Of a stretch of 64,000 bases of DNA, positions 2,859 to 18,144 are shown piece after piece (the first letter of the stretch is position 1; each line of letters starts with the position of its first letter). Source of the stretch: Acidimicrobiia bacterium (GTDB lineage Bacteria; Actinomycetota; Acidimicrobiia; Acidimicrobiales; AC-14). Below the pieces are notes generated by a model. The model had not been told where the DNA came from. It was given only the letters and a program-made list of their open reading frames with translations, and searched no databases. The stretch lies in the NCBI GenBank assembly GCA_046565765.1, contig JBKHXX010000057.1:14454-78453 (forward strand), read 5' to 3'. Position numbers and translations under genes: made by a program.

Positions 2859-2936
2859 CTAGCTGGAGGCCTTGACCTTCTTCGCGGCTACGACCCCAAG
2901 AGCGACAAGGATGGCGAGCAGGATCAGTTTCTTCAT
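2859..2936 (-). CDS. Possible 25-aa single-pass membrane peptide upstream of the tad operon
   Basis: MKKLILLAILVALGVVAAKKVKASS (tail of track ORF 2859..3137) has one hydrophobic helix flanked by Lys. There is no clear SD, and several codons end in A/T, unlike neighbouring genes. It loosely recalls small actinobacterial DLW-39-type peptides (recollection only). Confidence 0.3.
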   Translation of the reverse strand: MKKLILLAILVALGVVAAKKVKASS

Positions 2937-3020
2937 GGGGGACGAGCCTAGACCCGCGCCCGGCCCCGCGGAAGAGGCGCTGTACGCGGCGTTCGCGCCA
3001 CGCAGGCTAGTTTGAGCCCC

Positions 3021-3116
3021 GGAGGTGTCCGGGCGCCTGGTGGGCCCCACCGCCTTCAAAGCGGCTGAGGCGGGTGATCCCCGTCTGGCGGGTTCGATTC
3101 CCGTCCACCTCCGCCA
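3021..3116 (+). tRNA. selC: tRNA-Sec (anticodon UCA)
   Basis: 96-nt cloverleaf with acceptor GGAGGTG(T).../...CCACCTCC, discriminator G and encoded CCA. The anticodon loop is CTTCAAA with TCA at 3056-3058. It has a long variable arm (GGCGGGTGATCCCCGTC) and T-loop GGTTCGATTCC. selA and selB are present in the same window. Confidence 0.85.
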
Positions 3117-3148
3117 ACTCCTCCGGGTCGCCGGCACGCGCCCGCCTC

Positions 3149-4123
3149 CTAGACGGCCAGGAGGTCGCGGGCGCCGGTGTCGCTCGACGGGTGGCGCAGC
3201 TTCGACATGGCCCGGGCCTCGATCTGGCGAATCCGTTCCCGGGTGAGGTTGAAGTGCTCGCCGACCTCCTCCAGCGTGCGGGGCTCGCCACGGTCGAGAC
3301 CGAAGCGCAGGCGGAGGATCTCCCGCTCCCGCTCGTCGAGCGGGCCCAACAGCTTGGCGATCTCGTCGGGCAGCAGCGCGGTGGCCGCCACCTCGAACGG
3401 CGACTCGGCGGAACGGTCCTCGACCACGTCGCCCAGCTCGGCGTCGCCGTCCTCACGCAGTGGCTCGGAGAGCGACAGGGGCTCGGCCGCGAAGCGCAGG
3501 GCCTCGGTGACCTTGTCCTCGGGCATCTCCACCTCGGCCGACAGCTCCGACAGCGTGGCCGGACGGCCCAGCTTGAGCTCCAGCCGGGCGCGCGCCTTCT
3601 GCAGGCGGGCGAGCGTGTCGCCGGCGTGCACGGGGAGGCGGATGGTGCGGCCTGTGTTGGCGATGCCGCGGGTGATGGCCTGACGGATCCACCACGTGGC
3701 GTAGGTGGAGAACTTGAACCCCTTGCGCCAGTCGAACTTCTCGACGGCGTGCATCAGGCCCAGGTTTCCCTCCTGGATGAGGTCGAGCAGGGGAAGGCCG
3801 GAAGCCTGGTACTTCTTGGCGATCGAGACGACCAGGCGGAGGTTGGACTTGACGAAGGTGGACTGCGCCAGTTGGCCCTCGTTGGCGACGCGCCGGAGCT
3901 CGCGCCGCTTGGCCTGGGAGAGCCCTGGCTCCCCGTCCATGTGGCTGCGCGCTTCGTTGCCCGCCTCGATGGCCTTGGCCAGGCGGACTTCGTCGTCCTT
4001 GGTGAGCAGCGGGTACTGCCCGATGTCGGTGAGGTAGAGGCGGACGAGGTCTTCCTCGTCCCGCTCCACACGCTCTTTGGGCAACGTCAATTCCCTCGGA
4101 ATCTGTGCTAGACCGGGCACCAA
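3149..4123 (-). CDS. RNA polymerase sigma-70 family factor, group 2-like (SigB-type)
   Basis: DLVRLYLTDIGQYPLLTKDDEV (region 1.2); LVVSIAKKYQASGLPLLDLIQEGNLGLMHAVEKFDWRKGFKFSTYATWWIRQAITR (region 2); TLEEVGEHFNLTRERIRQIEARAMSKLRH (region 4.2). The short N-terminus argues against the housekeeping sigma. The start codon is uncertain. Confidence 0.9.
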   Translation of the reverse strand: MVPGLAQIPRELTLPKERVERDEEDLVRLYLTDIGQYPLLTKDDEVRLAKAIEAGNEARSHMDGEPGLSQAKRRELRRVANEGQLAQSTFVKSNLRLVVSIAKKYQASGLPLLDLIQEGNLGLMHAVEKFDWRKGFKFSTYATWWIRQAITRGIANTGRTIRLPVHAGDTLARLQKARARLELKLGRPATLSELSAEVEMPEDKVTEALRFAAEPLSLSEPLREDGDAELGDVVEDRSAESPFEVAATALLPDEIAKLLGPLDEREREILRLRFGLDRGEPRTLEEVGEHFNLTRERIRQIEARAMSKLRHPSSDTGARDLLAV

Positions 4124-4207
4124 GGATCAACGCCTCTACGGGCGCGCGAATTCCTCGTGCCCCCGGTCGGGGTGTTCGTCTTGTCGCCGGTCAGCATACC
4201 GCTGCGG

Positions 4208-4684
4208 TCAAGACCCCCCGTCCGCTCGGTCAATCTGGTGGCCTTCCGATGACTCGAGCGGCCCTCCGTGCGCCGCCGCCGCCAGCTCGGCCCGATCGTC
4301 GGCCAGCACCAGGCTGAGCACCCGTCGCAGTGGTCCGCCGGCGGCGACATCGTCCTCCGCCCGGTGCCACAACGCCTCGTACTCGCCGACGAGGCGGGGG
4401 AGGACGTCTCCGTAGTAGGCCTCCAGCCGCTTCCCCGTGGACAGGACCGCCGCCAGCGATTCGACCAGCCCGCCGGCGCCGTCGCCGGCCTCCGCCTCGA
4501 CGGGAGCCCGAACGAGCCCCTCCCACAGCTCGGCGTGCCAGGCGTGGCGGAACGACGCCACCCGCAGCGCCACCTTCACCTCGGGCTCGGGGACAGCCGG
4601 CGCCCATCCGCCGAGCACCTCGAACAGCCGCCGCTCGATGCCGCCGTAGTGGCGGGCCTTGGCGGCGAGCTCCGCAGTCAGCAT
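4208..4684 (-). CDS. Hypothetical protein
   Basis: Track ORF 4208..4729 trimmed to ATG 4684 (MLTAELAAKARHYGG...), with GGAG about 7 nt upstream. The amino-acid composition is coding-like. No family recognised. Confidence 0.55.
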   Translation of the reverse strand: MLTAELAAKARHYGGIERRLFEVLGGWAPAVPEPEVKVALRVASFRHAWHAELWEGLVRAPVEAEAGDGAGGLVESLAAVLSTGKRLEAYYGDVLPRLVGEYEALWHRAEDDVAAGGPLRRVLSLVLADDRAELAAAAHGGPLESSEGHQIDRADGGS

Positions 4685-4779
4685 CGTGGGCTCCGTCCCG
4701 TCTGTCTCACGACCACCCCGGCCGCCCACGGTTGCCGGCTTCTATGGTTTGATGGAAGTCAGCACGAAAGGCGGGATCG

Positions 4780-5013
4780 ATGGAATCCGACGGCGGCGGC
4801 GCGGCAGGCTTTCTCTTCCTCATCCTTGTCGGCCTCTACTTCATTCCACTCATCGTCGCCCTCGTCCGCAAGGTCCCCAACGTCGGCTCCGTGGGCGTCA
4901 TCAACTTCTTCCTTGGGTGGACGCTCATCGGCTGGGTCGTGGCCCTTGCCATGGCCGCCAGATCGGCCCCGACACCACCTTCCAGCTATCGGCCCCCACC
5001 GCCACCGAGCTGA
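4780..5013 (+). CDS. Superinfection-immunity (Imm) family small membrane protein
   Basis: YFIPLIVALVRKVPNVGSVGVINFFLGWTLIGWVVALAMA matches the two-helix signature I associate with the T4 Imm-like family (..NxxLGWTxIGWVxAL..). A Pro-rich tail follows. Confidence 0.7.
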   Translation: MESDGGGAAGFLFLILVGLYFIPLIVALVRKVPNVGSVGVINFFLGWTLIGWVVALAMAARSAPTPPSSYRPPPPPS

Positions 5014-5098
5014 GTTTCCGGACACAGGAACGCAGGTCCGGGGCGGCGAGGGCGGATCTCCCGCCCCTCGGGCGGCGCGTCGAGCCCGTCGGCCGACG

Positions 5099-6829
5099 TC
5101 ACCCCCGGTAGCGGTTGGTGATCGGCACCCGCCGGTCCTTGCCGAACGCCTTGGGCGTCACCCGCACGCCGGGCGGGGCCTGCCGTCGCTTGTACTCGGC
5201 CTTGTCCACCATGCCCACCACCCGCCGTACCAGCTCGGGGTCGTAGCCGGCCCGCTCCAGGTCGCCGGCGGTGGCGTCGCCGCCCACGTAGGCCTCCAGC
5301 ACCGGGTCGAGCTCGTCGTAGGGCGGCAGCGACTGGTCGTCGCGCTGGTCGGGGCGCAGCTCGGCCGAGGGGGGCTTGGTCAGCACCGCGTCGGGGATGC
5401 ACGGATGGGCCTTGGCCAGCTGGTACACGAGCGTCTTGGGGACGTCCTTGATGACCGCGAACCCCCCCGCCAGGTCCCCGTACAGCGTCGAGAAGCCCAC
5501 CGCCATCTCGCTCTTGTTGCCGGTGGCGAGCACCATCCAGCCGAACTTGTTGGACAGGGCCATCAGCAGCATCCCGCGGATGCGGGCCTGGATGTTCTCT
5601 TCGGTCAGGTCCTCCTGGCACCCTTCGAACGACTCGGCCAGCTGGTTGACGACGGCGGAGTGGACGGGCTCGATCTCGATGACCCGCCGCTCGATGCCGA
5701 GGCGGTCGGCCAGCTCCTGGGCGTCGGAGAGCGACCCCGGGCTCGAGTAGCGCGACGGCATGAGGACGCCGTGGACGTGCTCGGCGCCCAGCGCATCGAC
5801 CGCGACGGCGGCGACGATCGACGAGTCCACCCCTCCCGACAGGCCGATCACCACGTCGGTGAACCCGTTCTTGCGGACGTAGTCCCGGGTGCCGAGGACG
5901 AGAGCCCGGTGCACCTCCTCGACCGCCGGCAGCGGCTCGGTGAGCACCGGCTTGGCCGACCCGTCCGCCGCCTCCGACGTGGCGGTGATCAGGATCTCCT
6001 CCAGGGGCGGTGCGGTGGCGCGGCCTCGCGGGTCGAGCAGCCGCTTGCGGAAGACGGGCCGCACGTCGAGGTCGAGCACCATGACGTGCTCCTCGAACTG
6101 GGGAGCCCGCGCCACCAGCTGGCCGCTGGCGTCGACCACCAGCGACGCCCCGTCGAACACCAGCTCGTCCTGGGCACCCACCGAGTTCACGTAGACCAGG
6201 GCGCACGAGGCGTCCGCAGCCCGGGTGGCGAGCATGCGCTCCCGCTCCGGCAGCCGTCCCGCGAAGTAAGGAGAGGCGCTGAGGTTGACGACCAGCTCGG
6301 CCCCGCCCGCGGCCTGGTCGGCCATCGGACCGGTCGGTGTCCACACGTCCTCGCAGATCGACACCCCCACCCGCACGCCCCCGACGAGGAACAGCTGCGG
6401 CTCGTGGGTGCCCGCCGCGAAGTACCGCTGCTCGTCGAACACCGAGTAGTTGGGGAGCAGCCGCTTGCGGTAGACGCCCTGCACCGAACCGTAGGCGCAC
6501 ACCGCAGCGGCGTTGTACAGGTCCCGCCGGGCGTCGACGAACCCCACGACCGCCGCACAGCGGCTCGTGCGCGACGCCAGCTTCTCGAGGGCGGTGAGGT
6601 TGTCGCCCACGAAGCCGGGCTTGAGCAGCAGGTCCTCCGGCGGGTAGCCGGTGACGGCCAGCTCCGGGAAGACGGCCAGGTCGGCACCGGCCCGCTCCGC
6701 CTCGTCGAGCGCGGCGAGGACCCGCTCCACGTTGCCGTCCAGATCGCCGACGACGGTGTCGATCTGGCAGGCCGCGATCCGCAGGCGCGCCACGAATGCC
6801 GAGCCTAACGGCGCCTCGAGGCGTAGCAT
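5099..6829 (-). CDS. nadE: Glutamine-dependent NAD+ synthetase
   Basis: C-terminal 577 aa of track ORF 5099..8917. N-terminal CN-hydrolase domain (LRIAACQ..., FPELAVTGY, catalytic-Cys region VSICEDVW) plus the synthetase PP-loop GLSGGVDSS. The start is ATG 6829 or, more likely, GTG 6793 (VARLRIAACQ). Confidence 0.9.
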   Translation of the reverse strand: MLRLEAPLGSAFVARLRIAACQIDTVVGDLDGNVERVLAALDEAERAGADLAVFPELAVTGYPPEDLLLKPGFVGDNLTALEKLASRTSRCAAVVGFVDARRDLYNAAAVCAYGSVQGVYRKRLLPNYSVFDEQRYFAAGTHEPQLFLVGGVRVGVSICEDVWTPTGPMADQAAGGAELVVNLSASPYFAGRLPERERMLATRAADASCALVYVNSVGAQDELVFDGASLVVDASGQLVARAPQFEEHVMVLDLDVRPVFRKRLLDPRGRATAPPLEEILITATSEAADGSAKPVLTEPLPAVEEVHRALVLGTRDYVRKNGFTDVVIGLSGGVDSSIVAAVAVDALGAEHVHGVLMPSRYSSPGSLSDAQELADRLGIERRVIEIEPVHSAVVNQLAESFEGCQEDLTEENIQARIRGMLLMALSNKFGWMVLATGNKSEMAVGFSTLYGDLAGGFAVIKDVPKTLVYQLAKAHPCIPDAVLTKPPSAELRPDQRDDQSLPPYDELDPVLEAYVGGDATAGDLERAGYDPELVRRVVGMVDKAEYKRRQAPPGVRVTPKAFGKDRRVPITNRYRG

Positions 6830-6838
6830 GCCCAGACC

Positions 6839-8443
6839 ATGGATGGCGCTGCCATGGACTTCCCCGCCATGGACGACGCCACGATGGACGACGCAGCCCT
6901 CGTCCGCCGTGCGTCGGACGGCCAAACGGCCGCGTTCGACGCGCTCTACCAGCGCTACTCGCCGCGCCTCCACGAGTTCCTGGCGTGGGTCCTGCAGGAC
7001 TCCGAGGAAGCCGGCTACGTCCTCTACGACGCGTTCTGCGAGGTCGGTTCCCGCATCCACCAGCTCGTCGAGCCGGGACGGGTGCGGCCCTGGTTGTTCG
7101 CCGTCGCCAGCCGCCACGCCCTCCGCCACCGGGGCCAGCCCGGTGCAGCGGGTGACGCCCCCACCGACGCGGGCGGCGCGTGGGGCGAGCTGCTCCAGGT
7201 GGTGCGATCGGTTGGCCGGGACCTGTCTCCCCGGGAGCGGGCCCTCCTCCACCTCCGCTTCCGCCAGGGGTTCGACGGCGAGGAGCTGGCTGGCGCGGTG
7301 GGCGTCCCCGCCGAGGAGGCGACGGCTCAGGTCGACCGGCTCGTCGACCGGGTCGAGCAGGCGCTCAGCCTCAGCGTCGTCGCCCACCTCGGCACCAAGG
7401 ACTGCCCCGAGCTCAAGGTGCTCCTCGCCGACTGGGACGGCCACCTCGACAACCGCCAGCGGCCCATGCTCGAGGAGCACGCCGAGCGCTGCTCGATCTG
7501 CGGACCGCGCCGGCGCCGACACATCCCCGCCTCGTCGCTGCTGGGCGTCGCGCCCCCGGCCGCCATCCCGCCCGGCCTGCGGGAACGGCTCCTGGAGGAC
7601 GTGGACCTCGGCAGCCGCCGGGGCCGCTCCTGGTCCGCCCGTCGCGGCGGCTTCCCTCCGCCCCTGCTCTCCGCCCACGACCTGCGGCACCGCCTGGTGG
7701 CGGTGGCGGCGGCCGTCGTCCTGGTGGCCACCGCCACCTTCCTGGTCACGCGCGACGGCAGGGAGGGCGAAGAGGTGGCCAGCGTGGGGACGACCATCCG
7801 TCCCACGTCGACCACCCTCGCGGCACGAACGACCACCGTGCCCCCGAGCTCGTCGAGCACCGCGCCGCCCGATGGGGAGGGATCGGGTGCCCCCGGCGCC
7901 GCGAGCGGGACAGGTTCGGGCGCCACCGGCGGTGGCGGCATCACGGGCGGGGGCGCCTCGGGTACCGGCACGGGCGGGAGCGGCGCGGGCGGCGGCGGCG
8001 CGGGTGGGAGCGGCGCGGGCGGGGGCGGGAGCGGCGGGAGCGGGACGACGTCCACCACACCCGCCCCCGCGCCGCCACCCGAGACGACCACCACCCCCGC
8101 GCCCGACGAGACACCACCGTCGCTCAGCAACCTCTCGGTGAGCCCGTCGGCGGTGCGGGCCAGCGGGTGCTCGGGCGGTGGGGACACGACGGCAACGGTG
8201 AGCGTCACCGCGACCGACGCCTCGGGCATCGGGTCGGTGCGGGCCAGCGTGGCCGGTCCCGCCTCGGACAGCACGGCCCTCTCCCACGTTGGCGGGGGCG
8301 TCTACCGGGGCACCATCGGGCCGTTCGAGAGCCCGCTGCCGGCGGGCGTCGACTTCCCCGCCCACGTGGTGGTGAGTGCCACCGACACCCACGGGAACAC
8401 CGGGGTCACCAACACCGCCTTCACCATCCGCTGCGCGGGCTGA
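6839..8443 (+). CDS. ECF sigma factor fused to a ZAS-type anti-sigma domain, a TM helix and an extracytoplasmic Gly/Ser/Thr/Pro-rich plus Ig-like region
   Basis: Sigma region 2 (FDALYQRYSPRLHEFLAWVL...RPWLFAVASRHAL) and region 4 (LSPRERALLHLRFRQGFDGEELAGAVGV). ZAS motif DCPEL...HAERCSIC (HxxxCxxC). TM helix LVAVAAAVVLVATATFLV. C-terminal two-Cys beta-rich domain. Which of four in-frame ATGs (6839, 6854, 6869, 6884) is used is unclear. Confidence 0.75.
   Translation: MDGAAMDFPAMDDATMDDAALVRRASDGQTAAFDALYQRYSPRLHEFLAWVLQDSEEAGYVLYDAFCEVGSRIHQLVEPGRVRPWLFAVASRHALRHRGQPGAAGDAPTDAGGAWGELLQVVRSVGRDLSPRERALLHLRFRQGFDGEELAGAVGVPAEEATAQVDRLVDRVEQALSLSVVAHLGTKDCPELKVLLADWDGHLDNRQRPMLEEHAERCSICGPRRRRHIPASSLLGVAPPAAIPPGLRERLLEDVDLGSRRGRSWSARRGGFPPPLLSAHDLRHRLVAVAAAVVLVATATFLVTRDGREGEEVASVGTTIRPTSTTLAARTTTVPPSSSSTAPPDGEGSGAPGAASGTGSGATGGGGITGGGASGTGTGGSGAGGGGAGGSGAGGGGSGGSGTTSTTPAPAPPPETTTTPAPDETPPSLSNLSVSPSAVRASGCSGGGDTTATVSVTATDASGIGSVRASVAGPASDSTALSHVGGGVYRGTIGPFESPLPAGVDFPAHVVVSATDTHGNTGVTNTAFTIRCAG
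7918..8046 (+). repeat. Coding low-complexity G-rich imperfect tandem repeat (poly-Gly/Ser/Ala linker)
   Basis: GGGAGCGGCGCGGGCGG occurs exactly at 7976-7992 and 8006-8022, followed by GGGAGCGGC / GGGAGCGGG units. It encodes GSGATGGGGITGGGASGTGTGGSGAGGGGAGGSGAGGGGSGGSG. Confidence 0.6.
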
Positions 8444-8462: not shown

Positions 8463-11186
8463 GTGCACAGCGGCCCGCTCCGGGAGGCCGTGGAGAGGTC
8501 GGCGGCGCCGGCGGCGGTGGCGCTCGCCCTCGACCGCCTCGAGGAGTCGCACCCCGGGCTGACCGGCCGGCTGCACGACGACCCCGCCCTGTGCGACGCC
8601 CTCATCGCGGTGGTCGCAGCCAGCCGTTCGCTGACCGAGCTCCTCGTCGCCGACGCGGCGGCCATCGAGGTGCTGGCCGCTCTGGACCGCCGCTGCCCGA
8701 TCGGCGGACCGGAGACGGCCGAGGAGCTGCGGCGGGCCAAGCAGCTCGAGTACCTGCGCATCGCGGCCCGCGACCTCACCGGTCGCGACGACCTCCCCGC
8801 AGTGGGACGAGCCCTCGCCTCCCTGGGCGCCGACGTCCTCCGGGCCGCCCATGCGCTGGCCGGCAGCCCACCGCTGGCCGTCATCGGCATGGGAAAGCTG
8901 GGCGGCCGCGAGCTCAACTACGCCAGCGACGTGGACGTGGTCTTCGTGGCCGCGGAGAACGACGACGGGGACGCTGACCGGGCGGCCCGGGCCCTCATGA
9001 ACGCGGCCCGCACGTGCTTCCGGGTGGACGCCGACCTTCGTCCCGAGGGCCGCGACGGGCGGCTCACCCGCACCGTCGGGTCCTACGAGGCCTACTGGGA
9101 CCGCTGGGCCCAGACGTGGGAGTTCCAGGCCCTGATCAAGGCCCGCCCCGTGGCCGGCGACACCGACCTCGGTGCCGCCTTCCACGCCCGGGCCCAGGAG
9201 CGGCTCTGGACCCGCCCCTTCGCCCCCGAGGACCTGCGGGCGGTGCGGTCCATGAAGGCCCGCTCGGAGGCGGAGCTGGCCCGGCGGGGCCTTGCCGAGC
9301 GAGAGGTCAAGCGGGGCCCCGGCGGGATCCGCGACATCGAGTTCGCCGTCCAGCTCCTCCAGCTGGTGCACGGGCGCCACGACCCCGAGCTGCGATCACC
9401 CAACACGCTCGACGCCCTGGCCGAGCTGGCCCGGGCCGGGTACGTCGACGCTCACGACGCAGCCTCCCTGGACGAGGCCTACCGGGTGCTGCGCACCGTC
9501 GAGCACCGGTTGCAGCTGGAGCGCGAGCAGCAGGTGCACGCCATACCCTCCGACCCCGCCGCCCAGGACCGGCTGGCCCGCGTGCTCGGCTACCGGGATA
9601 CCCCCGAGGCGGCGGCCGGCGAGCTGCTGGGCGGCTATCTCCGCCGCCTCCAAGCCGGGGTCCGGACGATCCACGAGCACCTGTTCTTCCGTCCCCTGCT
9701 CGACGCCCTCTCCGCCCACCTGGCCGGGCCAAAAGCCCCGGCGGGGCAGATGTCCCCGGAGGCGGTAGCGGAACGGCTGGCCGCCTTCGGGTTCACCGAC
9801 GCCAAGCGCACCCGGGCCGCCCTCCAGGAGCTGACGCGGGGGCTCACCCGCTCGTCCCGGCTCATGCAGCAGTTCCTGCCGTTGCTGCTGGGCTGGCTGT
9901 CGGAGGCGCCCGATCCCGACCTCGGCCTGCTCGGCCTGCGGAAGCTGGCGTCGGGCGGCCAGCGCACGACCGAGCTGGCCGTGGCCTTCCGCGACTCGCC
10001 CGAGTCGGCCCGGCGCCTGTGCCGGCTCCTGGGCACCAGCGCCCGCCTGTCGGCCACCCTCGAACGGGAGCCCGACCTCATCCCCGCCCTGGGGGCGCCG
10101 GGCGGCCTCGACCACCGGCCGGCGGCGGCCATGCTCGCCGCCGCCACCGCCGCCCTCGAGTGGCGTGCCGACCTCGACGCCCGCCAGCACGCCCTCCAGC
10201 GCTTCCGCCGGCGGGAGGAGCTGCGGATCGCCGCCGCCGACGTCCTGGGCCTGGGCGTCGGCGAGGACGTCGGCGAGGACATCGTGGTGACGACGGCCCG
10301 GGCCCTCACCGGCCTGGCGGAGGCGGTGTTGCAGGCCACGCTCGACGTGCTGAGCCCCACGCTGCCCTTCGCCGTCGTGGCCCTGGGCCGGTTCGGCGGG
10401 GCCGAGCTGTCCTACGCCAGCGACCTCGACGTGATCTGCGTGTACGACGGCACGACTGCGGACGACTTCGCCGCCGCCGAGAAGACGGCCGAGGCCCTGC
10501 TGCGGTTCGTGGCCGGGCGCTCGCCCGCCACCCAGGTGTTCCCCATCGACTTCGACCTGCGGCCCGAGGGGAAGGACGGGCCCCTCGCCCGCAGCCTCGA
10601 CGGCTACCGCAACTACTACGACCGGTGGGTCCAGACGTGGGAGCTCCAGGCCCTGGTGCGAGCCCGCTTCGTCGCCGGAGACCCCGACGTGGGCCGGCGC
10701 TTCCTCGACCTGGTCGAGCCCTACGTCTGGCGCGAGCCGTTCCCCGAGGCCGACGTCAAGGAGATCCGCCGCATGAAGGCCCGGGTCGAGCGGGAGCGCA
10801 TCCCCGCCGGCGAGGACCCGCAGTTCCACCTCAAGCTGGGGCGCGGCTCGCTGTCCGACGTGGAGTGGACCGCCCAGCTCCTCCAACTCCGGCACGGCGT
10901 GCGGGCGCAGGGGACGATGACCGCGCTGGACGCCCTGGCTGCCGCAGGGGTGCTCGATGGCGGCGACCGGGCGGTGCTGGCCGACGCCTACCGCTTCTGC
11001 GAGCGCACCCGCAACCGCTGGTTCCTCGTGAAGGGGGCTCCCGACGACTCCCTCCCCCGCCAGCCCGAGAAGCTGGCCCACCTGGCCCGCTCGCTCGACG
11101 TCACCCCGACCGAGCTACGGGAGCACTACCGCCGCGTCACCCGCCGGGCCCGCAACGTGGTCGAGGGCCTGTTCTACGGGAAATGA
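8463..11186 (+). CDS. glnE: Bifunctional glutamine synthetase adenylyltransferase/adenylyl-removing enzyme
   Basis: Two nucleotidyltransferase cores, GMGKLGGRELNYASDVDVVFV and ALGRFGGAELSYASDLDVICV, each followed by a GlnE-type helical domain. The start is taken as the in-frame GTG 8463, just after the upstream stop at 8443. Confidence 0.9.
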   Translation: MHSGPLREAVERSAAPAAVALALDRLEESHPGLTGRLHDDPALCDALIAVVAASRSLTELLVADAAAIEVLAALDRRCPIGGPETAEELRRAKQLEYLRIAARDLTGRDDLPAVGRALASLGADVLRAAHALAGSPPLAVIGMGKLGGRELNYASDVDVVFVAAENDDGDADRAARALMNAARTCFRVDADLRPEGRDGRLTRTVGSYEAYWDRWAQTWEFQALIKARPVAGDTDLGAAFHARAQERLWTRPFAPEDLRAVRSMKARSEAELARRGLAEREVKRGPGGIRDIEFAVQLLQLVHGRHDPELRSPNTLDALAELARAGYVDAHDAASLDEAYRVLRTVEHRLQLEREQQVHAIPSDPAAQDRLARVLGYRDTPEAAAGELLGGYLRRLQAGVRTIHEHLFFRPLLDALSAHLAGPKAPAGQMSPEAVAERLAAFGFTDAKRTRAALQELTRGLTRSSRLMQQFLPLLLGWLSEAPDPDLGLLGLRKLASGGQRTTELAVAFRDSPESARRLCRLLGTSARLSATLEREPDLIPALGAPGGLDHRPAAAMLAAATAALEWRADLDARQHALQRFRRREELRIAAADVLGLGVGEDVGEDIVVTTARALTGLAEAVLQATLDVLSPTLPFAVVALGRFGGAELSYASDLDVICVYDGTTADDFAAAEKTAEALLRFVAGRSPATQVFPIDFDLRPEGKDGPLARSLDGYRNYYDRWVQTWELQALVRARFVAGDPDVGRRFLDLVEPYVWREPFPEADVKEIRRMKARVERERIPAGEDPQFHLKLGRGSLSDVEWTAQLLQLRHGVRAQGTMTALDALAAAGVLDGGDRAVLADAYRFCERTRNRWFLVKGAPDDSLPRQPEKLAHLARSLDVTPTELREHYRRVTRRARNVVEGLFYGK

Positions 11187-11471: not shown

Positions 11472-12005
11472 ATGACCATCGAGCCCTTGTCGCACCGCGG
11501 TCGCCCGGGGGACCTGACGTTCCGGTCTCCGGACGTGGCCGACGCCGCCACCGTCTGGCGTCTCGCCCGTAGCTGCGAAGGTCTCGACGAGAACTCCCCC
11601 TACGCCTACCTGCTCGTCTGCTCGCACTTTGCGGCCACGTCGGTCGTGGCCACATGCGGCCGTGAGGTGGTTGGGTTCGCGTCCGCCTACCGGCCCCCGA
11701 CAGCACGCGAGGCCGTGTTCGTCTGGCAGATCGCAGTCGCCCCCGACTGGCGGGGGGTGGGCGTTGGCACCCACCTGCTGGCGGCCCTGCTCGAGCGGCC
11801 GGCCAATCGCGACGCCACCCATCTCGAGGCGACCGTCACCGCCCCCAACCTGCCCTCCGAGCGGCTGTTCCGGTCGTTCGCCGAACACCGACAGGCTCGC
11901 TGCGCGACGTCGGTGATGTTCCCCGCGGGTGCCTTCCCCGGTACGGAGCACGAAGCCGAGGTGCTCTTCCGGATCGGCCCCTTGCGGCTGTCACGCCCTG
12001 CATGA
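11472..12005 (+). CDS. ectA: L-2,4-diaminobutyrate acetyltransferase
   Basis: GNAT fold with an EctA-like N-terminus (FRSPDVADAATVWRLARSCEGLDENSPYAYLLVCSHF) and acetyl-CoA motif VAPDWRGVGVGTHLL. First gene of an ect cluster. Confidence 0.9.
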   Translation: MTIEPLSHRGRPGDLTFRSPDVADAATVWRLARSCEGLDENSPYAYLLVCSHFAATSVVATCGREVVGFASAYRPPTAREAVFVWQIAVAPDWRGVGVGTHLLAALLERPANRDATHLEATVTAPNLPSERLFRSFAEHRQARCATSVMFPAGAFPGTEHEAEVLFRIGPLRLSRPA

Positions 12006-12052
12006 ACCCCGCGTCCCCGGTCTCGGGGCGCCGACCACCAGGAGAGTCGCGG

Positions 12053-13342
12053 ATGAACACCGTCAACCGTCTCGAGTCCGAGGTGCGGGCCTACTGCCGC
12101 GCCTGGCCGACCGACTTCGCCGTCGCCAGGGGATGCCGCCTGACCGACGTGAACGGCCGGCGCTACCTGGACCTCTTCGCCGGGGCGGGGTCGCTCAACT
12201 ACGGGCACAACCACCCCGTCCTCAAGGCGGCACTCATCGAGTACCTCGCCGCCGACGGCATCGTCCACAGCCTCGACATGGCGACGGTGGCCAAGGAGCG
12301 CTTCCTCGACACCTTCGACCGGCTGATCCTCCGCCCGAGAGGCCTGCGGTACAAGGTGCAGTTCCCCGGACCGACGGGGACGAACTCGGTGGAGGCGGCG
12401 CTGAAGCTCGCCCGGAAGGTGACCGGTCGTGACCGCATCGTGAGCTTCACCAACTCCTTCCACGGCATGACCCTGGGCTCACTGTCGGTCACGGGCAACT
12501 CCATCAAGCGCAACGGCGCCGGCCTGCCCCTCGGCTCGACCGTGAGCATGCCGTTCGACGGCTATCTCGGTGAAGGCGTCGACACGCTCGACCTGTTCGA
12601 GTCGATGGTCGACGACGCCGGGAGCGGGTTCGACCGACCGGCAGCCGCCATCGTGGAGACCGTCCAGGCCGAAGGGGGGATCAACGTGGCCTCCATGGGA
12701 TGGCTGCGGAGGCTCGCCGACGTATGCCGCCGCCACGAGATGCTGCTGATCATCGACGACATCCAGGTCGGCAACGGCCGCACCGGATCGTTCTTCAGCT
12801 TCGAGCCGGCGGAGGTCGTGCCTGACATCGTCTGCCTGTCCAAGTCCCTGAGTGGGTACGGCCTGCCCCTCGCGGTGACGCTGATCCGGCCGGAGCTCGA
12901 CATCTGGGCGCCGGGCGAGCACAACGGCACCTTCCGCGGTCACAACCCCGCCTTCGTGACCGCCACGGCCGCTCTCGACACGTTCTGGACGTCCGCCGCC
13001 CTGGCCAAGGACGTCGCCCGCAAGGGCGGGCGCATCGAGGCCGGGCTGGAGCAGCTCGTGCAGGCGTACCCCGAGCTGCACGGCGAGGTACGGGGCCGGG
13101 GCATGCTCCAGGGCATCGTCTGCGACCCGCCCGCCCTCGCCGGCAAGGTGACGAGGGCGGCCTTCGACCGGAACGTGATCATCGAGACGTCGGGCATCGA
13201 GGGCCAGACGATCAAGATGCTCCCCCCGCTCGTCATCGACCACGAGGACCTGGATGAGGGGTTGTCGGTGCTCGACCTGTCGATCGCCGACGCCCTGGGG
13301 GTGGCGCCCCGCGCCGACCTGGAGGAGCTCGCCGGTGTCTGA
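12053..13342 (+). CDS. ectB: Diaminobutyrate--2-oxoglutarate transaminase
   Basis: MNTVNRLESEVRAYCRAWP is a typical EctB N-terminus. Class-III aminotransferase with PLP-Lys region CLSKSLSGYGLP. GGAGAG lies 6-7 nt before ATG 12053. An alternative ATG 12002 (ATGA overlap with ectA) would add 17 non-conserved-looking residues. Confidence 0.9.
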   Translation: MNTVNRLESEVRAYCRAWPTDFAVARGCRLTDVNGRRYLDLFAGAGSLNYGHNHPVLKAALIEYLAADGIVHSLDMATVAKERFLDTFDRLILRPRGLRYKVQFPGPTGTNSVEAALKLARKVTGRDRIVSFTNSFHGMTLGSLSVTGNSIKRNGAGLPLGSTVSMPFDGYLGEGVDTLDLFESMVDDAGSGFDRPAAAIVETVQAEGGINVASMGWLRRLADVCRRHEMLLIIDDIQVGNGRTGSFFSFEPAEVVPDIVCLSKSLSGYGLPLAVTLIRPELDIWAPGEHNGTFRGHNPAFVTATAALDTFWTSAALAKDVARKGGRIEAGLEQLVQAYPELHGEVRGRGMLQGIVCDPPALAGKVTRAAFDRNVIIETSGIEGQTIKMLPPLVIDHEDLDEGLSVLDLSIADALGVAPRADLEELAGV

Positions 13343-13381: not shown

Positions 13382-14650
13382 GTGATCGTCAGGACGATCG
13401 AGGAGGTCGCCGGGACCGACCGCGCCGTGGAAGCGCCGACGTTCGTCAGCCATCGTCTGCTCCTGGCGCGGGACGGGACCGACTTCTCCCTCCACGACAC
13501 CACGCTCCACGCCGGCACGACCACGACGATGGAGTACCGCCACCACACGGAGGCGGTGTACTGCCTGTCCGGAGAGGGAGAGCTCGAGGATGTGGCCACC
13601 GGCGCCCGGTGGGCCGTCCGGCCCGGCGTCCTCTACGTCGTCGACGAGCACGAGCGCCACGAGCTACGCGCCCGTACCGACCTGCGCATGGTGTGCGTGT
13701 TCACGCCGCCCCTCGTCGGCTCGGAGGTGCACGACGGCGACGGCGTGTACCCCCGGTTGGCGGCGGCGGCACCCACCGACCGGTACCCGACACGGAAGGG
13801 CGACAGGCCGGCCCTGATGCCCCGCCTCGACCCGGTCGTGCACGGGCCGGCCGGCGGCGGCCCGCTGGCTGCCGGCCAGCTCGCCTCGTACGAGCGCGAC
13901 GGGTTCCTCCAGCTCCCCGAGATGTTCGGCCCGGCCGAGGTGGCGGAGCTACGCGAGGAGATGGAGGCCCTGGCCGCCCGGCCCGCCCTGCGCGACTCGG
14001 GGCGCGTGGTCATCGAGCCGCACGGCGACGTGGTGCGCTCCGTCTTCGAGGTCCACCGGGTCAGCGAGCTGTTCGGGAAGCTGGCCGCCGACCCGAGGCT
14101 CGCCGACGCCGCTCGCCAACTGCTGGGTTCGGACGTCTACGTCCACCAGAGCCGGGTGAACTACAAGCCGGGCTTCGGGGGCGAGGGCTTCTACTGGCAC
14201 TCCGACTTCGAGACCTGGCACGCCGAGGACGGGTTGCCCGCCATGCGGGCCGTGAGCTTCTCGGTGGCCCTCAGCGACAACCTCGTCGTCAACGGCCCCC
14301 TCATGATCATCCCGGGTTCCCACCGGACGTTCGTCTCCTGCCCCGGGGAGACGCCCCCCGACCACTACCGCGAGTCGTTGCGCAGCCAACAGATCGGCAC
14401 CCCCGACGACCGCAGCCTCCAGGCCCTCGCCGAGGAGGCGGGCGAGATCCGCGCCTTCGTCGGGAAGGCCGGCGGCGTGACGATCTTCGACTGCAACTGC
14501 ATGCACGGTTCGGGAAGCAACATCTCACCCCACCCGCGCAGCAACGTCTTCATCGTCTACAACAGCGTGGAGAACACCCCTGTCGAGCCGTTCGCGGCGC
14601 CCACCCGGCGCCCGTCGTTCGTGGCCGGCCGCGACTTCACCCCGATCTGA
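13382..14650 (+). CDS. ectC-ectD: Fused ectoine synthase (EctC, aa ~1-128) and ectoine hydroxylase (EctD, aa ~134-422)
   Basis: Single uninterrupted 422-codon ORF starting at GTG. The N-terminal cupin is MIVRTIEEV...YRHHTEAVYCLSGEGELE...HELRA. The C-terminal part is DRYPTRKGD...YERDGFLQLPEMF...FYWHSDFETWHAEDGLPAMRAVS (EctD signature)...CNCMHGSGSNISP. Confidence 0.85.
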   Translation: MIVRTIEEVAGTDRAVEAPTFVSHRLLLARDGTDFSLHDTTLHAGTTTTMEYRHHTEAVYCLSGEGELEDVATGARWAVRPGVLYVVDEHERHELRARTDLRMVCVFTPPLVGSEVHDGDGVYPRLAAAAPTDRYPTRKGDRPALMPRLDPVVHGPAGGGPLAAGQLASYERDGFLQLPEMFGPAEVAELREEMEALAARPALRDSGRVVIEPHGDVVRSVFEVHRVSELFGKLAADPRLADAARQLLGSDVYVHQSRVNYKPGFGGEGFYWHSDFETWHAEDGLPAMRAVSFSVALSDNLVVNGPLMIIPGSHRTFVSCPGETPPDHYRESLRSQQIGTPDDRSLQALAEEAGEIRAFVGKAGGVTIFDCNCMHGSGSNISPHPRSNVFIVYNSVENTPVEPFAAPTRRPSFVAGRDFTPI

Positions 14651-14665: not shown

Positions 14666-14971
14666 CTAGGCCTCTTTGAGGTGGCTGCCGGCCCAGAAGC
14701 CGCCGAAGGGCACGGCGGACATGACGATGACCAGCAGCGTCCGCCACCCGTCCCAGCCCTGCGACTCCCGGATGCGCAGCACGAGGGCCACGTAGATCAG
14801 CACCGCGATGCCGTGGATCGGTCCGAGCACGCCGATGTAGCGGGGACCGTCGAAGACCCGGTAGAGCACGACGGCAGCGAGCAGCAACAGGTAGCTGACG
14901 GCCTCGACGAGGGCGACGACCCGGAAGGCGGCCACCTCTCCCGAGAGCTGGGGGTGGGACGGCGCGGTCAC
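14666..14971 (-). CDS. DUF3817-type small integral membrane protein
   Basis: Tail of track ORF 14666..15415 from the in-frame GTG 14971: VTAPSH...FRVVALVEAVSYLLLLAAVVLYRV...GPIHGIAVLIYVALVL...MSAVPFGGFWAGSHL. A CATACT -10-like hexamer ends 7 nt before the GTG, so the mRNA is possibly leaderless. Confidence 0.7.
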   Translation of the reverse strand: MTAPSHPQLSGEVAAFRVVALVEAVSYLLLLAAVVLYRVFDGPRYIGVLGPIHGIAVLIYVALVLRIRESQGWDGWRTLLVIVMSAVPFGGFWAGSHLKEA

Positions 14972-14990: not shown

Positions 14991-15028
14991 CGAGAGGAGG
15001 GCAGGCCAGGTGGCCTGCCCTCCTCTCG
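14991..15028 (-). terminator. Strong hairpin 14 nt downstream of the hydrogenase-like gene
   Basis: CGAGAGGAGGGCAGGCCA-gg-TGGCCTGCCCTCCTCTCG, a perfect 18-nt inverted repeat between the stop at 15042 and the next gene start at 14971. Confidence 0.6.
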
Positions 15029-15041
15029 GGTACCTCGCCGA

Positions 15042-16922
15042 CTATTCGAAGGTGCAGCCGCAGGAGTTGACCTCTCGCACGATGACGCCCTGGCCGGTGT
15101 CCATGTGGGTGGTGCAGGGCATGCAGGGGTTGAGGCTGCGCACCGCCCGGAGGACGTCGATGCCCTTGATCTGGTCCTCGGGGACCGACTCGAGCAGCGG
15201 GGTGTCGACCACACACTCCTCGTAGGGGCCGAGACGCCCGAAGGCGTCGGTGGGCGAGGCGTTGAGCGTGGACGGCGTCGTGATCTGGTAGTTGACCAGC
15301 TTCCCCTTGTCCATCTCGGCGTGGTGGACCAGGAACCCTCGGGCCGCCTCCCAGAAGCCGACCGCGATGCGGTGGTCCTTGGGGATCCGGAACGGGGTGT
15401 GGACCTTGGTCTCACCGGCCCGCCAGTACTCGAACGCCTTCAGCAGGCAGTTCATGGCGATGCAGGCCGACATGGCCATGGCGTAGGCCCGGCCCCGGTT
15501 GCGCTCGAGAGCGTTCAGGGTGCGGGGCACGGCCCACATGAGCTCGGTTTCGGGCAGGGCGTGGCGGGGGAGCAGCATGCGCATGCCGTCGCCGGTCGCC
15601 TCGTAGAACGGGTTGTCCGGGTGCTTCTGGGCCATGGAGACGCCCCAGATCTGGCCGTACGCACCGGTCTCGATGGCGTTGCGGTCCCAACGGGGCGCGG
15701 TGTCCCACGTGTAGCGCTCACGGAAGTTGGTGGCCGTGGGCTTCGGGATCGTGGTCTTGTTCCACGGGTGGTAGGGCGACAACGGGTTGCCCAGCGGGTC
15801 GGTCTTGTACTTCTGGGGCCCGGTCTTGGTCCAGTCCTCGTAGAAGGAGTGGTCGACGAACTCCTCGTAGCCGATGTTGATGTCGCTCAGGTTGGTGGTG
15901 ACCAGCTTGCCGTCGATGATCATCGTGGGCGTCGACCAGCGGGCGTTGCCCCAGGTGTCGACGTTGGCGTACGTGGCGTCGTACACGTCGGAGTTGTCGT
16001 AGATGCCGGTCTGGGCGATGTTCACCTGGCGGGCGCCCACCCGCTCGTACTCGGGGTTGGCCTCGTAGAAGAAGTCGCAGATGTCGTCCCAGATGCGGGG
16101 GAGGACCTTGCAGAAGTCGATGATCTTGCCCAGCTGCGAGTAGTACTCGTTGAACGAGCTGGTCGTGATCGTGGTCGACACGCCGCCGGGGACCAGCGTC
16201 GAGGGGTGGGGGAACTTGCCGTACATGAGCATGCACATGATCCGCCCCACCCGGGTCCACTCGAGGGCCTCGAGGTAGATCTTCCCGGTGAGGGGGTTCA
16301 TGGCGTCCATGATGTCTTTGATGGTCGTGTAGCCGTGGATGTCGGCGTTGGGGGCCAGCGTCTTCTCGGCCCTCGTCACCAGCTCGGGGTTGGTGACCGA
16401 GACCAGCGAGGTCGAGTAGTCGGGCCCGGCGAGGAGGCCGAGATGCAGGGGACGGTCATAGAACATCTCGGCCGCCTCGCCAAGGTTGCGGACCTCGACG
16501 CCCAACGGCGGAGCACAGATGCCGAAGAGCTGCTCGAGGCAGAGAGCCGACACGGTGGCGTGCACGCCACCGCAGACCCCGCAGGCCCGCGACGAGATGT
16601 CGATGGCGTCACGGGGGTCACGGCCCTGGAGGATGATCTCGTACCCACGGAAGAGCATGGCCCGGGCGTGGCACTCCACCGCCTTGCGGCTCTCGAGGTC
16701 GAGGACGGTGTGGATGGCCAGTGCGCCGGCCACCCGGGTCATCGGGTCGATCGACCACTCACGCAGCCGGGGAGGGGCGGCCAGCTGGGCGCCCGGACCC
16801 GAGCGGCGCCGCACATAGCCCTTGCGCGGCGTCGACTGCATGGCGTATGGATTCTCGACGCCGGCCCGCAGGCGGGCCTTCCCGGCGGCGTCGAACTCGA
16901 TGGGAAGGTTCTTGAAGCACAT
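15042..16922 (-). CDS. [NiFe]-hydrogenase large-subunit homologue (stand-alone, atypical)
   Basis: Track ORF 15042..16970 trimmed to ATG 16922 (MCFKNLPIEF...). N-terminal metal motif SSRACGVCGGVH and C-terminal NPCMPCTTH plus a 20-aa tail. Homology by eye runs across the length (FRGYEIILQGRDPRDA, HPSTLVPGG, GFWEAARGFLVHH). No small-subunit gene is adjacent. Confidence 0.85.
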   Translation of the reverse strand: MCFKNLPIEFDAAGKARLRAGVENPYAMQSTPRKGYVRRRSGPGAQLAAPPRLREWSIDPMTRVAGALAIHTVLDLESRKAVECHARAMLFRGYEIILQGRDPRDAIDISSRACGVCGGVHATVSALCLEQLFGICAPPLGVEVRNLGEAAEMFYDRPLHLGLLAGPDYSTSLVSVTNPELVTRAEKTLAPNADIHGYTTIKDIMDAMNPLTGKIYLEALEWTRVGRIMCMLMYGKFPHPSTLVPGGVSTTITTSSFNEYYSQLGKIIDFCKVLPRIWDDICDFFYEANPEYERVGARQVNIAQTGIYDNSDVYDATYANVDTWGNARWSTPTMIIDGKLVTTNLSDINIGYEEFVDHSFYEDWTKTGPQKYKTDPLGNPLSPYHPWNKTTIPKPTATNFRERYTWDTAPRWDRNAIETGAYGQIWGVSMAQKHPDNPFYEATGDGMRMLLPRHALPETELMWAVPRTLNALERNRGRAYAMAMSACIAMNCLLKAFEYWRAGETKVHTPFRIPKDHRIAVGFWEAARGFLVHHAEMDKGKLVNYQITTPSTLNASPTDAFGRLGPYEECVVDTPLLESVPEDQIKGIDVLRAVRSLNPCMPCTTHMDTGQGVIVREVNSCGCTFE

Positions 16923-17001
16923 GTCTGGATTCCGTCCCTGTCCGTCGGTCGTACAGGGGAAGGCTCGCACTTAGTGTCGGTAACATCTACCGTTATAAGC
17001 C

Positions 17002-18144
17002 ATGCTTACTGAGGGTACGGACCGGGTCTCGAGCGGCATCCCCGACCTCGACGAGTTGCTCGACGGTCTGATGCTCGGCGACAACGTGGTGTGGGTCGTC
17101 GAGTCCACCGACACCGTGGCCTTGCTGGAGGACAACCTGCTCCGCGAGGCGGTGCGGCGGAAGCAACCGTGTACCTATGTGACGGCCACCGGCGAGGCGG
17201 CCAAGCTGCGCCGGCGCCTCCCGCCCGAGGTCAAGATCCTCGACGCCCGTCCGGGGAAGCCCAATGCCGATCCCACCACCCTCGAGACCACGATCGTCGA
17301 AGGGTCACGGGGGCCCGTCCCCGCCTGCGTGGTGTTCGACGACCTCGGCACCTTCGCCACCCGCTGGCGCGCCGACCGGGCCGTGGCCTTCTTCAGCCGG
17401 GTCTGCCCCCGCCTGTTCGACCTCGGCGCCCTCGCCTACTGGCGGGCGCCCCGCAAGGAGCTCAGCCGGTCCGCCCTCGACCGCATCACCCAGGTGACCC
17501 AGTGCGTGCTGGAGCTGGGCACCGATCACCTGCGGGTGGTGAAGTCGGAGGGGCGGGAGGCGCGCGTGCAGGGCAGCCTGCTGCGGGTCACCGTCGGGCA
17601 CGGGACGATGTCCCTCGAGTCGCAGTTGGGACTGGGGCGCCTCGGGCGAGGGCTCGAGCGGATCCGCCACGAGCGCAACCTCACCCAGACCGACCTCGCC
17701 CGCATGGGCAAGGTCACGCCCAGCGCCATCTCCCAGGCCGAAGCGGGCCGGCGGGGCCTCTCCCTCGACACGCTGCTGCTGCTCTCGGAGCGTCTCGGGG
17801 TCACCCTCGACGAGCTGCTCTCGGGCGCCACCGCTCCCGACTACGTCCTCGCCCGCCGGCCGCGGGGCTTCAGCGGCAGCAAGCGGGCGCTCCACAACGA
17901 TCCCCGCACCGGGTTGCGGTCCTACCTGGTGCGCCTGGGCCCGGGCGAGTCGGGAACCGCCGAGGAGGTGCACAAGGACGCCGAGCTGGTGCTGGTCGCC
18001 TCCGGCCTGGTGCAGGTCACCGTGGGGGCCGACACGCCGGTCATGCGGGCCGGAGATGCCGTGCTGGCCACCAAGGCGCCGGTCAGCGGCTGGCGGAACC
18101 TCACCGGTGACACGGCCATGCTGTTCGTGGTGCTGCGGGACTGA
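17002..18144 (+). CDS. Three-domain transcriptional regulator: degenerate KaiC/RecA-like domain + XRE-type HTH + cupin
   Basis: SGIPDLDELLDGLMLGDNVVWVVESTDT is the KaiC/RadA-type entry motif, but the P-loop GxxGxGKT is absent. The HTH is LERIRHERNLTQTDLARMGKVTPSAISQAEAGRRGLSLDTLLLLSERLGV. The C-terminal cupin barrel is LVRLGPGESG...LVLVASGLVQVTVG...GDAV. Confidence 0.8.
   Translation: MLTEGTDRVSSGIPDLDELLDGLMLGDNVVWVVESTDTVALLEDNLLREAVRRKQPCTYVTATGEAAKLRRRLPPEVKILDARPGKPNADPTTLETTIVEGSRGPVPACVVFDDLGTFATRWRADRAVAFFSRVCPRLFDLGALAYWRAPRKELSRSALDRITQVTQCVLELGTDHLRVVKSEGREARVQGSLLRVTVGHGTMSLESQLGLGRLGRGLERIRHERNLTQTDLARMGKVTPSAISQAEAGRRGLSLDTLLLLSERLGVTLDELLSGATAPDYVLARRPRGFSGSKRALHNDPRTGLRSYLVRLGPGESGTAEEVHKDAELVLVASGLVQVTVGADTPVMRAGDAVLATKAPVSGWRNLTGDTAMLFVVLRD

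Follow-up and report, generated by a model that had tools for sequence, protein, structure and literature searches.

Group 1h high-affinity [NiFe]-hydrogenases (formerly group 5; HhyL/HofG), which are found in Cupriavidus necator, Streptomyces, and Mycobacterium, are active H2 oxidizers. Group 1l (HylL), which is represented by Hymenobacter roseosalivarius and by Antarctic and desert metagenome-assembled genomes (MAGs), is the sister of group 1h and has a substituted proximal-cluster ligand in its small subunit (bioRxiv 10.1101/2020.08.06.239558). Group 1m (HhmSL) was defined in silico from cold-desert Actinobacteriota MAGs (Ray et al. 2022; PMC9561532) and is akin to 1h and 1l, the oxygen-tolerant trace-H2 consumers of soil and desert Actinobacteria. 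Here we describe a solitary (i.e., orphan) large-subunit (LSU) gene, for which group 1m is the best fit, in a 64,000-nucleotide stretch of DNA from an Acidimicrobiia bacterium (GenBank assembly GCA_046565765.1; contig JBKHXX010000057.1, positions 14,454 to 78,453; the whole stretch is referred to as the window). The gene very probably encodes an additional, functional paralogue of the catalytic subunit of a 1m/1h-type uptake hydrogenase, one that depends on genes located elsewhere in the genome. Its features in window coordinates are as follows.

15042 to 16922, minus strand: orphan LSU gene (626 aa plus stop codon), a regulator-linked ("B-type") paralogue of a group 1m-like clade.
16758 to 16922, minus strand: N-terminal extension, residues 1 to 55 (MCFKNLPIEFD...), with a conserved Cys2 (clade alignment).
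16722 to 16736, minus strand: RVAGA, residues 63 to 67, in the position of the RIEGH motif (alignment).
16560 to 16589, minus strand: L1 motif RACGVCGGVH, residues 112 to 121, with the Ni/Fe ligands Cys114 and Cys117 (read from the sequence).
15339 to 15341, minus strand: canopy arginine Arg528 (EAARG), flanked by the B-type signature residues Ala527 (canonically Gly; Hyd-1 position 508) and Phe530 (canonically Trp) (alignment to Hyd-1/HofG and per-type residue table).
15105 to 15131, minus strand: L2 motif NPCMPCTTH, residues 598 to 606, with the ligands Cys600 and Cys603 and with Asn598 in place of a canopy Asp (clade alignment).
15045 to 15104, minus strand: C-terminal tail MDTGQGVIVREVNSCGCTFE, residues 607 to 626 (20 aa), with a conserved CxC (clade alignment).

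The open reading frame (ORF) extends on the minus strand from an ATG at 16922 to a TAG stop codon at 15042 to 15044. Since MCFKNLP begins every homologue, we took this ATG as the true start rather than an alternative GTG at 16970 that would lengthen the protein. A preliminary description of this DNA, made without database searches, had recognized a [NiFe]-hydrogenase large-subunit homologue with all four metal-ligand cysteines and a 20-aa tail following the L2 motif, and these points held: the PF00374 profile matched with an E value of 1.3e-60 (206 bits; cutoff, 25.8) in a full-length alignment, and the product is a full-length [NiFe] large subunit with the four ligand cysteines, the canopy arginine, and a C-terminal maturation tail. 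The NCBIfam model NF033181 aligned with residues 57 to 607 at a score (i.e., 229) below its equivalog cutoff of 600, and the scan of this database missed all equivalog cutoffs. The top relative in the PDB was chain C of 5aa5 (HofG; group 1h, Cupriavidus necator; E = 3e-148), and the identity to HhyL of pHG1 and Streptomyces was 41 to 42% over about 575 to 590 residues. The family to which the LSU belongs comprises more than 120 protein clusters (74 to 92% identical and mostly 626 aa long), mainly from Acidimicrobiales MAGs, and the L1 cysteines are kept in 98 to 100% of 63 broad-clade sequences. With regard to the canopy residues (i.e., a pendant Arg and two Asp partners, as defined in PMC10430524), Arg528 and Asp156 are retained, while the second Asp (Hyd-1 D574; Hyd-2 D544) is Asn598. 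The KxPHP motif is intact, and its His239, which aligns with Hyd-1 H229, is invariant. An AlphaFold2 model built from 43 aligned sequences (74 to 96% identity) had a mean pLDDT of 63, with residues 22 to 115 and 601 to 626 below 50, and was too poor for any of the signature residues, the N-terminal extension, or the C-terminal tail to be placed.

On the basis of the canonical gene order in the clade, the CDGC motif of its small subunits, and the 1l-type spacer in its 52 to 57% relatives, the LSU appears to fall in the 1h/1l/1m supergroup, with group 1m as the best fit; this last match is with the published description and gene order of the group. Thus, the suspicion that this was an unclassifiable protein is not sustained, as it falls in an established lineage with known partners. 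In canonical clade loci, the order is hypFEDC (divergent), the small subunit, the LSU, a protease-like gene, a NifU-like gene, a gene of unknown function, the HycI protease, a TPR protein, and small single-transmembrane (TM) proteins (HycI, 1.1e-18, and NifU, 1.6e-17, in locus L010; TPR_12, 1.9e-11, and 82- to 141-aa hydrophobic proteins in L036). These loci share with group 1m the adjacent subunit genes, the HycI/HybD peptidase, the NifU-type iron-sulfur (FeS) assembly protein, the TPR protein, and the small single-TM proteins (PMC9561532); a candidate for the BirA-like protein of the 1m cluster (248 aa, c19) had no Pfam match. In its paralogues and clade orthologues, the LSU lies within ~200 nt of the small-subunit gene, whereas the window copy has no small-subunit or accessory genes in 64 kb and is instead paired with an XRE-type helix-turn-helix (HTH)/cupin regulator.

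Group 1h contains the closest solved structure, and its members resemble the clade in having no RIEGH glutamate, a C-terminal tail, a cytoplasmic non-Tat small subunit, and an operon with NifU-like, protease, and hyp genes. However, the small subunits of group 1h read CDGD (i.e., an Asp ligand at the proximal cluster; 2/2 references), in contrast to CDGC in 30/30 clade small subunits; the L1 motif is TSRICGICGDNH in group 1h and SSRACGVCGGVH in the clade; and the Cys2 extension and the CxC tail are absent from group 1h. The 1h accessory genes (i.e., those encoding DUF5947, DUF6084, and a 470-aa protein) gave no tblastn match in 82 related loci or in the window, and we know of no orphan copies in group 1h. 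Relatives with 52 to 57% LSU identity (L051 and L154 to L167) have 1.5 to 1.9 kb between the two subunit genes, a spacer that contains small hydrophobic ORFs and represents the 1l arrangement; group 1l has five TM ORFs at this position, whereas the subunit genes are directly adjacent in the core clade of the window. Group 2b (HoxBC/HupUV with the kinase HoxJ) likewise places a NiFe large subunit in a regulatory gene context. It differs in having its own small subunit (HoxB), no C-terminal extension, and histidine-kinase signaling, while the window LSU has a 20-aa tail, no local small subunit, no adjoining kinase within the window, and an XRE/cupin regulator; its similarity is to 1h/1m, not to group 2. 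Tandem arrangements were observed in Solirubrobacterales and related MAGs, in which two small-subunit/LSU pairs follow each other (L056, 4977 to 11887; L065, 5048 to 11887; L066 to L068; L079); the first LSU stops exactly at the L2 His and has neither a tail nor an N-terminal extension, as in protease-independent hydrogenases.

We searched the window by tblastn with group 1h proteins from pHG1 and a Streptomyces plasmid (E < 1e-5) and with the clade's own proteins (E ≤ 1), and we found no small subunit, HypC, HypD, HypE, HypF, maturation protease, or PP2C fusion. The earlier statement that the 64 kb contain no small subunit, maturases, or protease is therefore borne out for the small subunit, HypC/D/E/F, and the protease; the HypA, HypB, and HoxN queries matched no locus at all and are hence uninformative about absence from the window. 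A survey of species-representative genomes (79 loci) revealed that the core-clade loci are of the following types: canonical (approximately 27 loci), with the small subunit directly upstream; regulator-linked (17 loci, including the window); and bare orphans (approximately 10 loci), with neither a small subunit nor the XRE-HTH/cupin regulator. Orphans make up about half of the LSU loci in these Acidimicrobiales, and the orphan state is real biology, explained neither by gene fragmentation nor by an accident of assembly. Both an orphan and a canonical locus are present in six MAGs (L004 and L005, L020 and L024, L022 and L025, L010 and L019, L048 and L064, and L053 and L055); in the one closest to the window, the orphan (L004) is 96% identical to the window LSU, and the small-subunit-linked copy (L005) is 89% identical.

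The preliminary description had pointed out that the gene might simply be a relocated structural gene, i.e., the sole LSU of the genome, moved away from a small-subunit/hyp cluster that is now without one. We examined 80 metagenome loci seeded with the small subunit, about 69 of which were informative. The LSU was directly downstream in 60 of them, overlapped the end of the small-subunit match in 5, and was directly upstream in 2; of the remainder, 11 were cut by contig ends, L157 had too little downstream sequence, and L129 was ambiguous. No population of operons without an LSU was found among these 80 loci. Since small-subunit loci nearly always carry their own LSU (i.e., essentially all of the informative ones) and the MAGs with orphans hold a complete operon that includes an LSU, as the L004/L005 MAG does, relocation is very improbable.

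The altered residues of the LSU were considered next to those of its relatives. The replacement of RIEGH by RVAGA, which had been read together with the change of DPC to NPC as a sign of a different chemistry, is real, but RVAGA is invariant in all clade members, including the copies with an adjacent small subunit and adjacent hyp genes. Group 1h reads RIVGS at this position; only the distant Asgard-archaeal relatives L074 and L076 keep RIEGH. The glutamate of Hyd-1 is reportedly not needed for the first deprotonation/initial H2 activation, and its replacement is not fully inactivating (PMC10430524). In view of this, and of the Val that group 1h has here, the loss of the glutamate is compatible with activity. 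The Asp-to-Asn change is also real and lies at a canopy position. Only the window, L004, L017, and L005 have Asn598, with DPC in nearly all other sequences (the exception being the distant partial L069), and the L005 copy has a genuine small subunit (PF01058 and PF14720) directly upstream. A new function is thus not supported by either change. The additional N-terminal residues (about 56 had been counted) are present, but the extension is only ~30 aa longer than that of the closest solved relative, since HofG has ~24 residues before WDPITR. The extension and the tail (MDTGxGxIxREVNSCGCTLE) are not peculiar to orphans, as both occur in canonical, regulator-linked, and bare-orphan copies and also in relatives from Chloroflexota, Solirubrobacterales, and Halobacteria, while the extension is absent from the group 1h references. 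The odd active-site residues thus appear to be lineage traits rather than signs of new chemistry, and the nearest clade, rather than the textbook members of group 1, is the yardstick for missing "invariant" residues.

Asn598 at a canopy position would also be in keeping with a decaying pseudogene or relic. However, the 626-aa frame is intact, 224 of its 626 positions do not vary within the core clade, the same Asn occurs in a small-subunit-linked copy, and the ratio of nonsynonymous to synonymous substitution rates (dN/dS) between the window LSU and its ortholog in L004 is 0.05. The orphan LSU is under strong purifying selection, and decay is scarcely credible.

Extra cysteines that have no group 1h counterpart were observed across the clade, i.e., Cys2 (nucleotides 16917 to 16919) and Cys621/Cys623 (nucleotides 15054 to 15062), with 81 to 89% conservation. 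In the tail, which has no such residues in group 1h, Cys621 is found in 89% and Cys623 in 87% of the sequences. These columns are occupied in canonical and orphan copies alike (e.g., L005, L010, L051, and L070), and the residues might make up an additional metal site or be recognized by a protease or pseudo-protease.

Within genomes, the paralogues are 87 to 90% identical, while copies from the same locus type in different genomes are 75 to 85% identical, and a neighbor-joining tree interleaves the locus types. An ancient diverged orphan lineage was ruled out, since the locus types interleave and the paralogues group by genome. The within-genome pairs are mosaics with tracts of 97 to 100% identity, and their identical runs are 71 to 129 nt long, compared with 35 to 36 nt between genomes. 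The copies differ most over their first ~135 nt. Because of these mosaic tracts and long identical runs, the data point to gene conversion as a means by which paralogues within a genome exchange sequence. An assembly or binning artefact behind the within-MAG similarity was ruled out; the copies are on different contigs and have different recurrent neighbors. The counts of unique changes on the orphan and operon branches were 17:11, 28:20, 23:16, and 14:11, none of which differed significantly, and all of the changes were conservative.

These data bear on the proposal that the protein works without the canonical electron-transfer partner. The orphan is nearly identical to the operon copy, shares conversion tracts with it, differs from it only conservatively, and has an intact KxPHP motif with His239; the interface with the small subunit is therefore probably still constrained, which does not favor such a partnerless protein. 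Because the usual constraints still seem to apply, we favor an isoform that uses the single small subunit of the operon. We would put sharing of that small subunit at an even chance, and we are equally divided over the fuller reading, i.e., that the orphan is a separately regulated alternative catalytic subunit sharing both the small subunit and the maturases of the operon. Singleton amoC and pmoC copies beside full amo/pmo operons are also separately regulated extra subunits with gene conversion among copies; the likeness is in genetic architecture only, since the enzyme is unrelated.

The following elements lie upstream of the LSU gene.

17002 to 18144, plus strand: divergent regulator gene (380 aa), with a degenerate RecA/KaiC-like N-domain, an XRE-type HTH (residues 218 to 272), and a cupin domain (residues 309 to 377) (Pfam).
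16996 to 17008, no strand assigned: perfect palindrome TAAGC-N3-GCTTA (TAAGCCATGCTTA), a candidate operator that lies in the 79 bp between the divergent genes and overlaps the regulator ATG.

The Pfam scores of the regulator were 5.8e-14 for HTH_3 and 3.3e-07 for Cupin_2, with a weak match to PAXNEB. Orthologues with 53 to 82% identity are divergent to an LSU in 16 other loci (i.e., 17 including the window), so that both the divergent regulator noted in the preliminary description and its association with orphans are confirmed as conserved. Two further homologues on long contigs (L086 and L087) either have an LSU as neighbor or lie at the end of the contig, and the one in L086 is divergent to its LSU. 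The top 120 regulator homologues are all ~380 aa long and 62 to 100% identical. The palindrome occurs once in the window, compared with 0.10 expected matches, and a related extended motif, AGCNNNGCTWAYNNNNNTAG, is confined to regulator-LSU intergenic regions (8/84 loci). The regulator-linked copies also carry a residue signature, i.e., Tyr237 to Phe, Gly527 to Ser/Ala, Trp530 to Phe/Tyr, Ile381 to Leu, Ser86 to Ala, Ser110 to Thr, and Met425 to Ile/Leu. Position 237 is two residues before the invariant His239, 527 adjoins Arg528, and 530 is two residues past Arg528.

The bare ("C-type") orphans have canonical residues at positions 237, 527, and 530. This observation, the similarity of the branch rates, and the gene conversion that keeps the copies alike would all suit a plain redundant copy, i.e., an undifferentiated spare for a damage-prone subunit or a means of raising dosage, with the regulator adjacent by chance. 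Against this, the pairing with the regulator, the palindrome, and the signature are conserved across distant genomes (75 to 83% LSU identity), which indicates a maintained distinct locus, and the dN/dS values between paralogues (0.17 to 0.28) are several-fold above the 0.05 of orthologous orphans. We regard mere redundancy as improbable.

Other observations concern the regulators. A search for the exact sequence of the window LSU found no record, whereas that for the regulator did: a 100% identical regulator (P0121) is encoded on a 6.6-kb Logan contig of SRR23730086 (L085), which is an independent assembly of the window's organism. The contig ends 107 nt upstream of the regulator (L085, 1 to 107), exactly where the LSU should start; such a break could arise if near-identical LSU paralogues collapse in, or interrupt, short-read assemblies. 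A second gene family of ~230 to 300 aa (with a weak HTH_20 match in L001) is divergent to the bare-orphan LSUs of L019 and L030 and also occurs within regulator-linked loci (L001, 7273 to 8049; L012; L038); its members may constitute a second class of regulators of orphan copies.

In most of the complete regulator-linked loci, a PP2C (SpoIIE)-domain protein is encoded directly after the LSU. The domain preceding PP2C in these proteins is homologous to HycI-type proteases (28 to 33% identity; Pfam HycI E = 0.1) and to the protease-like gene 3' of the LSU in canonical operons, and the corresponding genes are as follows.

L001, 11878 to 13344: pseudo-endopeptidase-PP2C fusion.
L002, 11878 to 13077: pseudo-endopeptidase-PP2C fusion.
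L008, 3300 to 4763: pseudo-endopeptidase-PP2C fusion.
L064, 8987 to 10390: pseudo-endopeptidase-PP2C fusion.
L010, 11890 to 12411: unfused pseudo-endopeptidase directly after the LSU in a canonical operon.
L024, about 9344 to 9826: unfused pseudo-endopeptidase directly after the LSU in a canonical operon.

Both the free and the fused forms have lost the metal triad of the endopeptidases, with E16/D62/H93 replaced by L/G/G (numbered with a HybD sequence as the guide), whereas the second protease of the canonical operons (i.e., HycI) keeps D/D/H. Such a pseudo-endopeptidase would bind without cutting. The fusion is missing from the window and from L038.

These genes raise an alternative in which the orphan is a sensor without a small subunit, i.e., a NiFe site with no FeS relay that senses H2 (or O2, or nickel/maturation status); its partners would be the pseudo-endopeptidase-PP2C fusion found at most sister loci, the divergent HTH-cupin regulator of the window, or both. 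The regulator is conserved and divergent at 17 loci; the start of the fusion gene overlaps the LSU stop codon in L001 and L002, and the gene directly follows the LSU in the other complete regulator-linked loci; the lost triad suggests binding without cleavage; and the regulator-linked signature adjoins the canopy arginine. Isolated large subunits can activate H2, according to a report in which the isolated HoxC large subunit was studied as a "minimal hydrogenase" (PMC8159394). Signaling genes also lie upstream of one orphan: in L003, three same-strand genes (positions 1 to 5193; a response regulator-guanylate cyclase, a response regulator-Hpt, and another response regulator-guanylate cyclase) precede a bare-orphan LSU (positions 5361 to 7241; 84% identical to that of the window) by 168 nt. 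However, the window has neither the PP2C fusion nor the pseudo-protease, and the unfused pseudo-protease directly follows the LSU in canonical operons, which makes it a general clade accessory rather than a sensor-specific one. In addition, the orphans are 87 to 90% identical to the operon copy with only conservative changes and an intact KxPHP motif, and they keep the C-terminal tail, unlike known regulatory hydrogenases. We consider a sensor possible but unlikely. Somewhat more doubtful still is a specific version of it, according to which the regulator-linked orphans form a new H2 (or redox/nickel) sensing module without an FeS small subunit: the dead endopeptidase domain would hold the Cys tail and, PP2C-fused in most loci, would turn the NiFe-site state into a signal at the level of phosphatase activity or transcription, the window being a reduced version that acts through the HTH-cupin regulator alone.

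For the reading that we favor, i.e., a separately regulated alternative catalytic subunit that shares the operon's small subunit and maturases, the following course of events is envisaged. The Hyp proteins of an operon elsewhere in the genome would load the orphan LSU with NiFe(CN)2CO, the HycI protease from that operon would trim its tail, and the processed LSU would pair with the operon's single small subunit. The resulting isoenzyme would differ subtly around the active-site canopy and close to the face of the proximal cluster (Phe237, Ala527, Phe530, and Asn598), and the regulator would bind TAAGC-N3-GCTTA and time the production of the orphan isoform in response to a signal. Several points weigh against this proposal. 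One paralogue pair had a faster orphan branch (43:21; p = 0.008). The modest recurrent signature beside the canopy arginine (Gly527 to Ser/Ala and Trp530 to Phe/Tyr) outlasts gene conversion, and because it survives, the copies are not simply interchangeable. Binding of the small subunit by the orphan is deduced from sequence comparison, as the AlphaFold2 model is too poor for the interface, and we infer the operon of the window's own organism from the closest MAG (L004/L005). Finally, the translationally coupled pseudo-endopeptidase-PP2C genes usual at regulator-linked loci and the response-regulator/cyclase genes of L003 hint at signaling over plain catalysis.

While the protein family and its partners are already known, we found no relevant report on orphan, solitary, or multicopy large subunits or on D574N in the literature searched, nor a description there of widespread orphan LSU paralogues, of the XRE/cupin regulator with its operator-like palindrome, of pseudo-endopeptidase-PP2C fusions, or of concerted evolution with the operon copy. 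The genes hhyL, hylL, and hhmL are standard markers for counting atmospheric-H2 oxidizers in soils, deserts, and Antarctica. With two or three LSU copies in single genomes and about half of the loci orphaned in this clade, such counts exceed the number of complete enzymes and may also exceed that of organisms. That an additional catalytic subunit is conserved under its own regulation suggests that a trace-gas hydrogenase switches between isoenzymes, with several large subunits for one small subunit; we came across no account of this in the literature searched. The pseudo-endopeptidase, which is free in operons and fused to PP2C at orphans, offers a testable handle on the maturation of these enzymes or on sensing by them.

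The following features lie downstream of the LSU gene.

14991 to 15028, minus strand: perfect 18-bp GC-rich hairpin, 14 nt past the LSU stop codon (−46.8 kcal/mol; z = −6.07), a possible terminator without a U-tract.
14666 to 14971, minus strand: gene for a small DUF3817 membrane protein (PF12823, 1.3e-18; start approximate).

None of 200 shuffled sequences was as stable as the hairpin, which was not called in a scan for T-tail terminators. A promoter scan found no sigma-70 promoter, and no Rfam match was found near the LSU gene. The DUF3817 gene, which comes next on the same strand, no more than about 25 nt away, is a neighbor without a demonstrated link to the LSU; it is also found 3' of the LSU in L017 (91% identity for the LSU and 83% for DUF3817). 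As for the claim that the LSU gene is monocistronic, the hairpin and the divergent regulator on which it was based are real, but the hairpin has no U-tract, and the DUF3817 gene lies close behind in the same orientation; a monocistronic transcript is therefore no more than plausible. An esterase-like gene past the regulator is common to the window, L004, and L039. Judged by such common neighbors, the loci of the window, L004, L039, and L017 are orthologous.

The remaining annotated genes of the window are housekeeping genes (i.e., those for GlnE, NadE, ectoine synthesis, sigma factors, and an esterase). The ectoine genes consist of an ectA-like gene (GNAT; 11472 to 12005), an ectB-like gene (class III aminotransferase; 12002 to 13342), and a fusion ORF (13382 to 14650; plus strand) that converges on the hydrogenase gene. 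In the 422-aa product of the last, the ectoine synthase EctC (residues 1 to 125) is fused to a PhyH-type dioxygenase (an EctD-like ectoine hydroxylase; residues 170 to 387). A selenocysteine tRNA gene (tRNA-Sec; anticodon TCA) is located at 3021 to 3116 on the plus strand (63 bits with Rfam; also called by ARAGORN). It raised the question of a NiFeSe enzyme, which was ruled out by the Cys codons at all four ligand positions of the LSU; given this tRNA gene, the organism probably makes selenoproteins.

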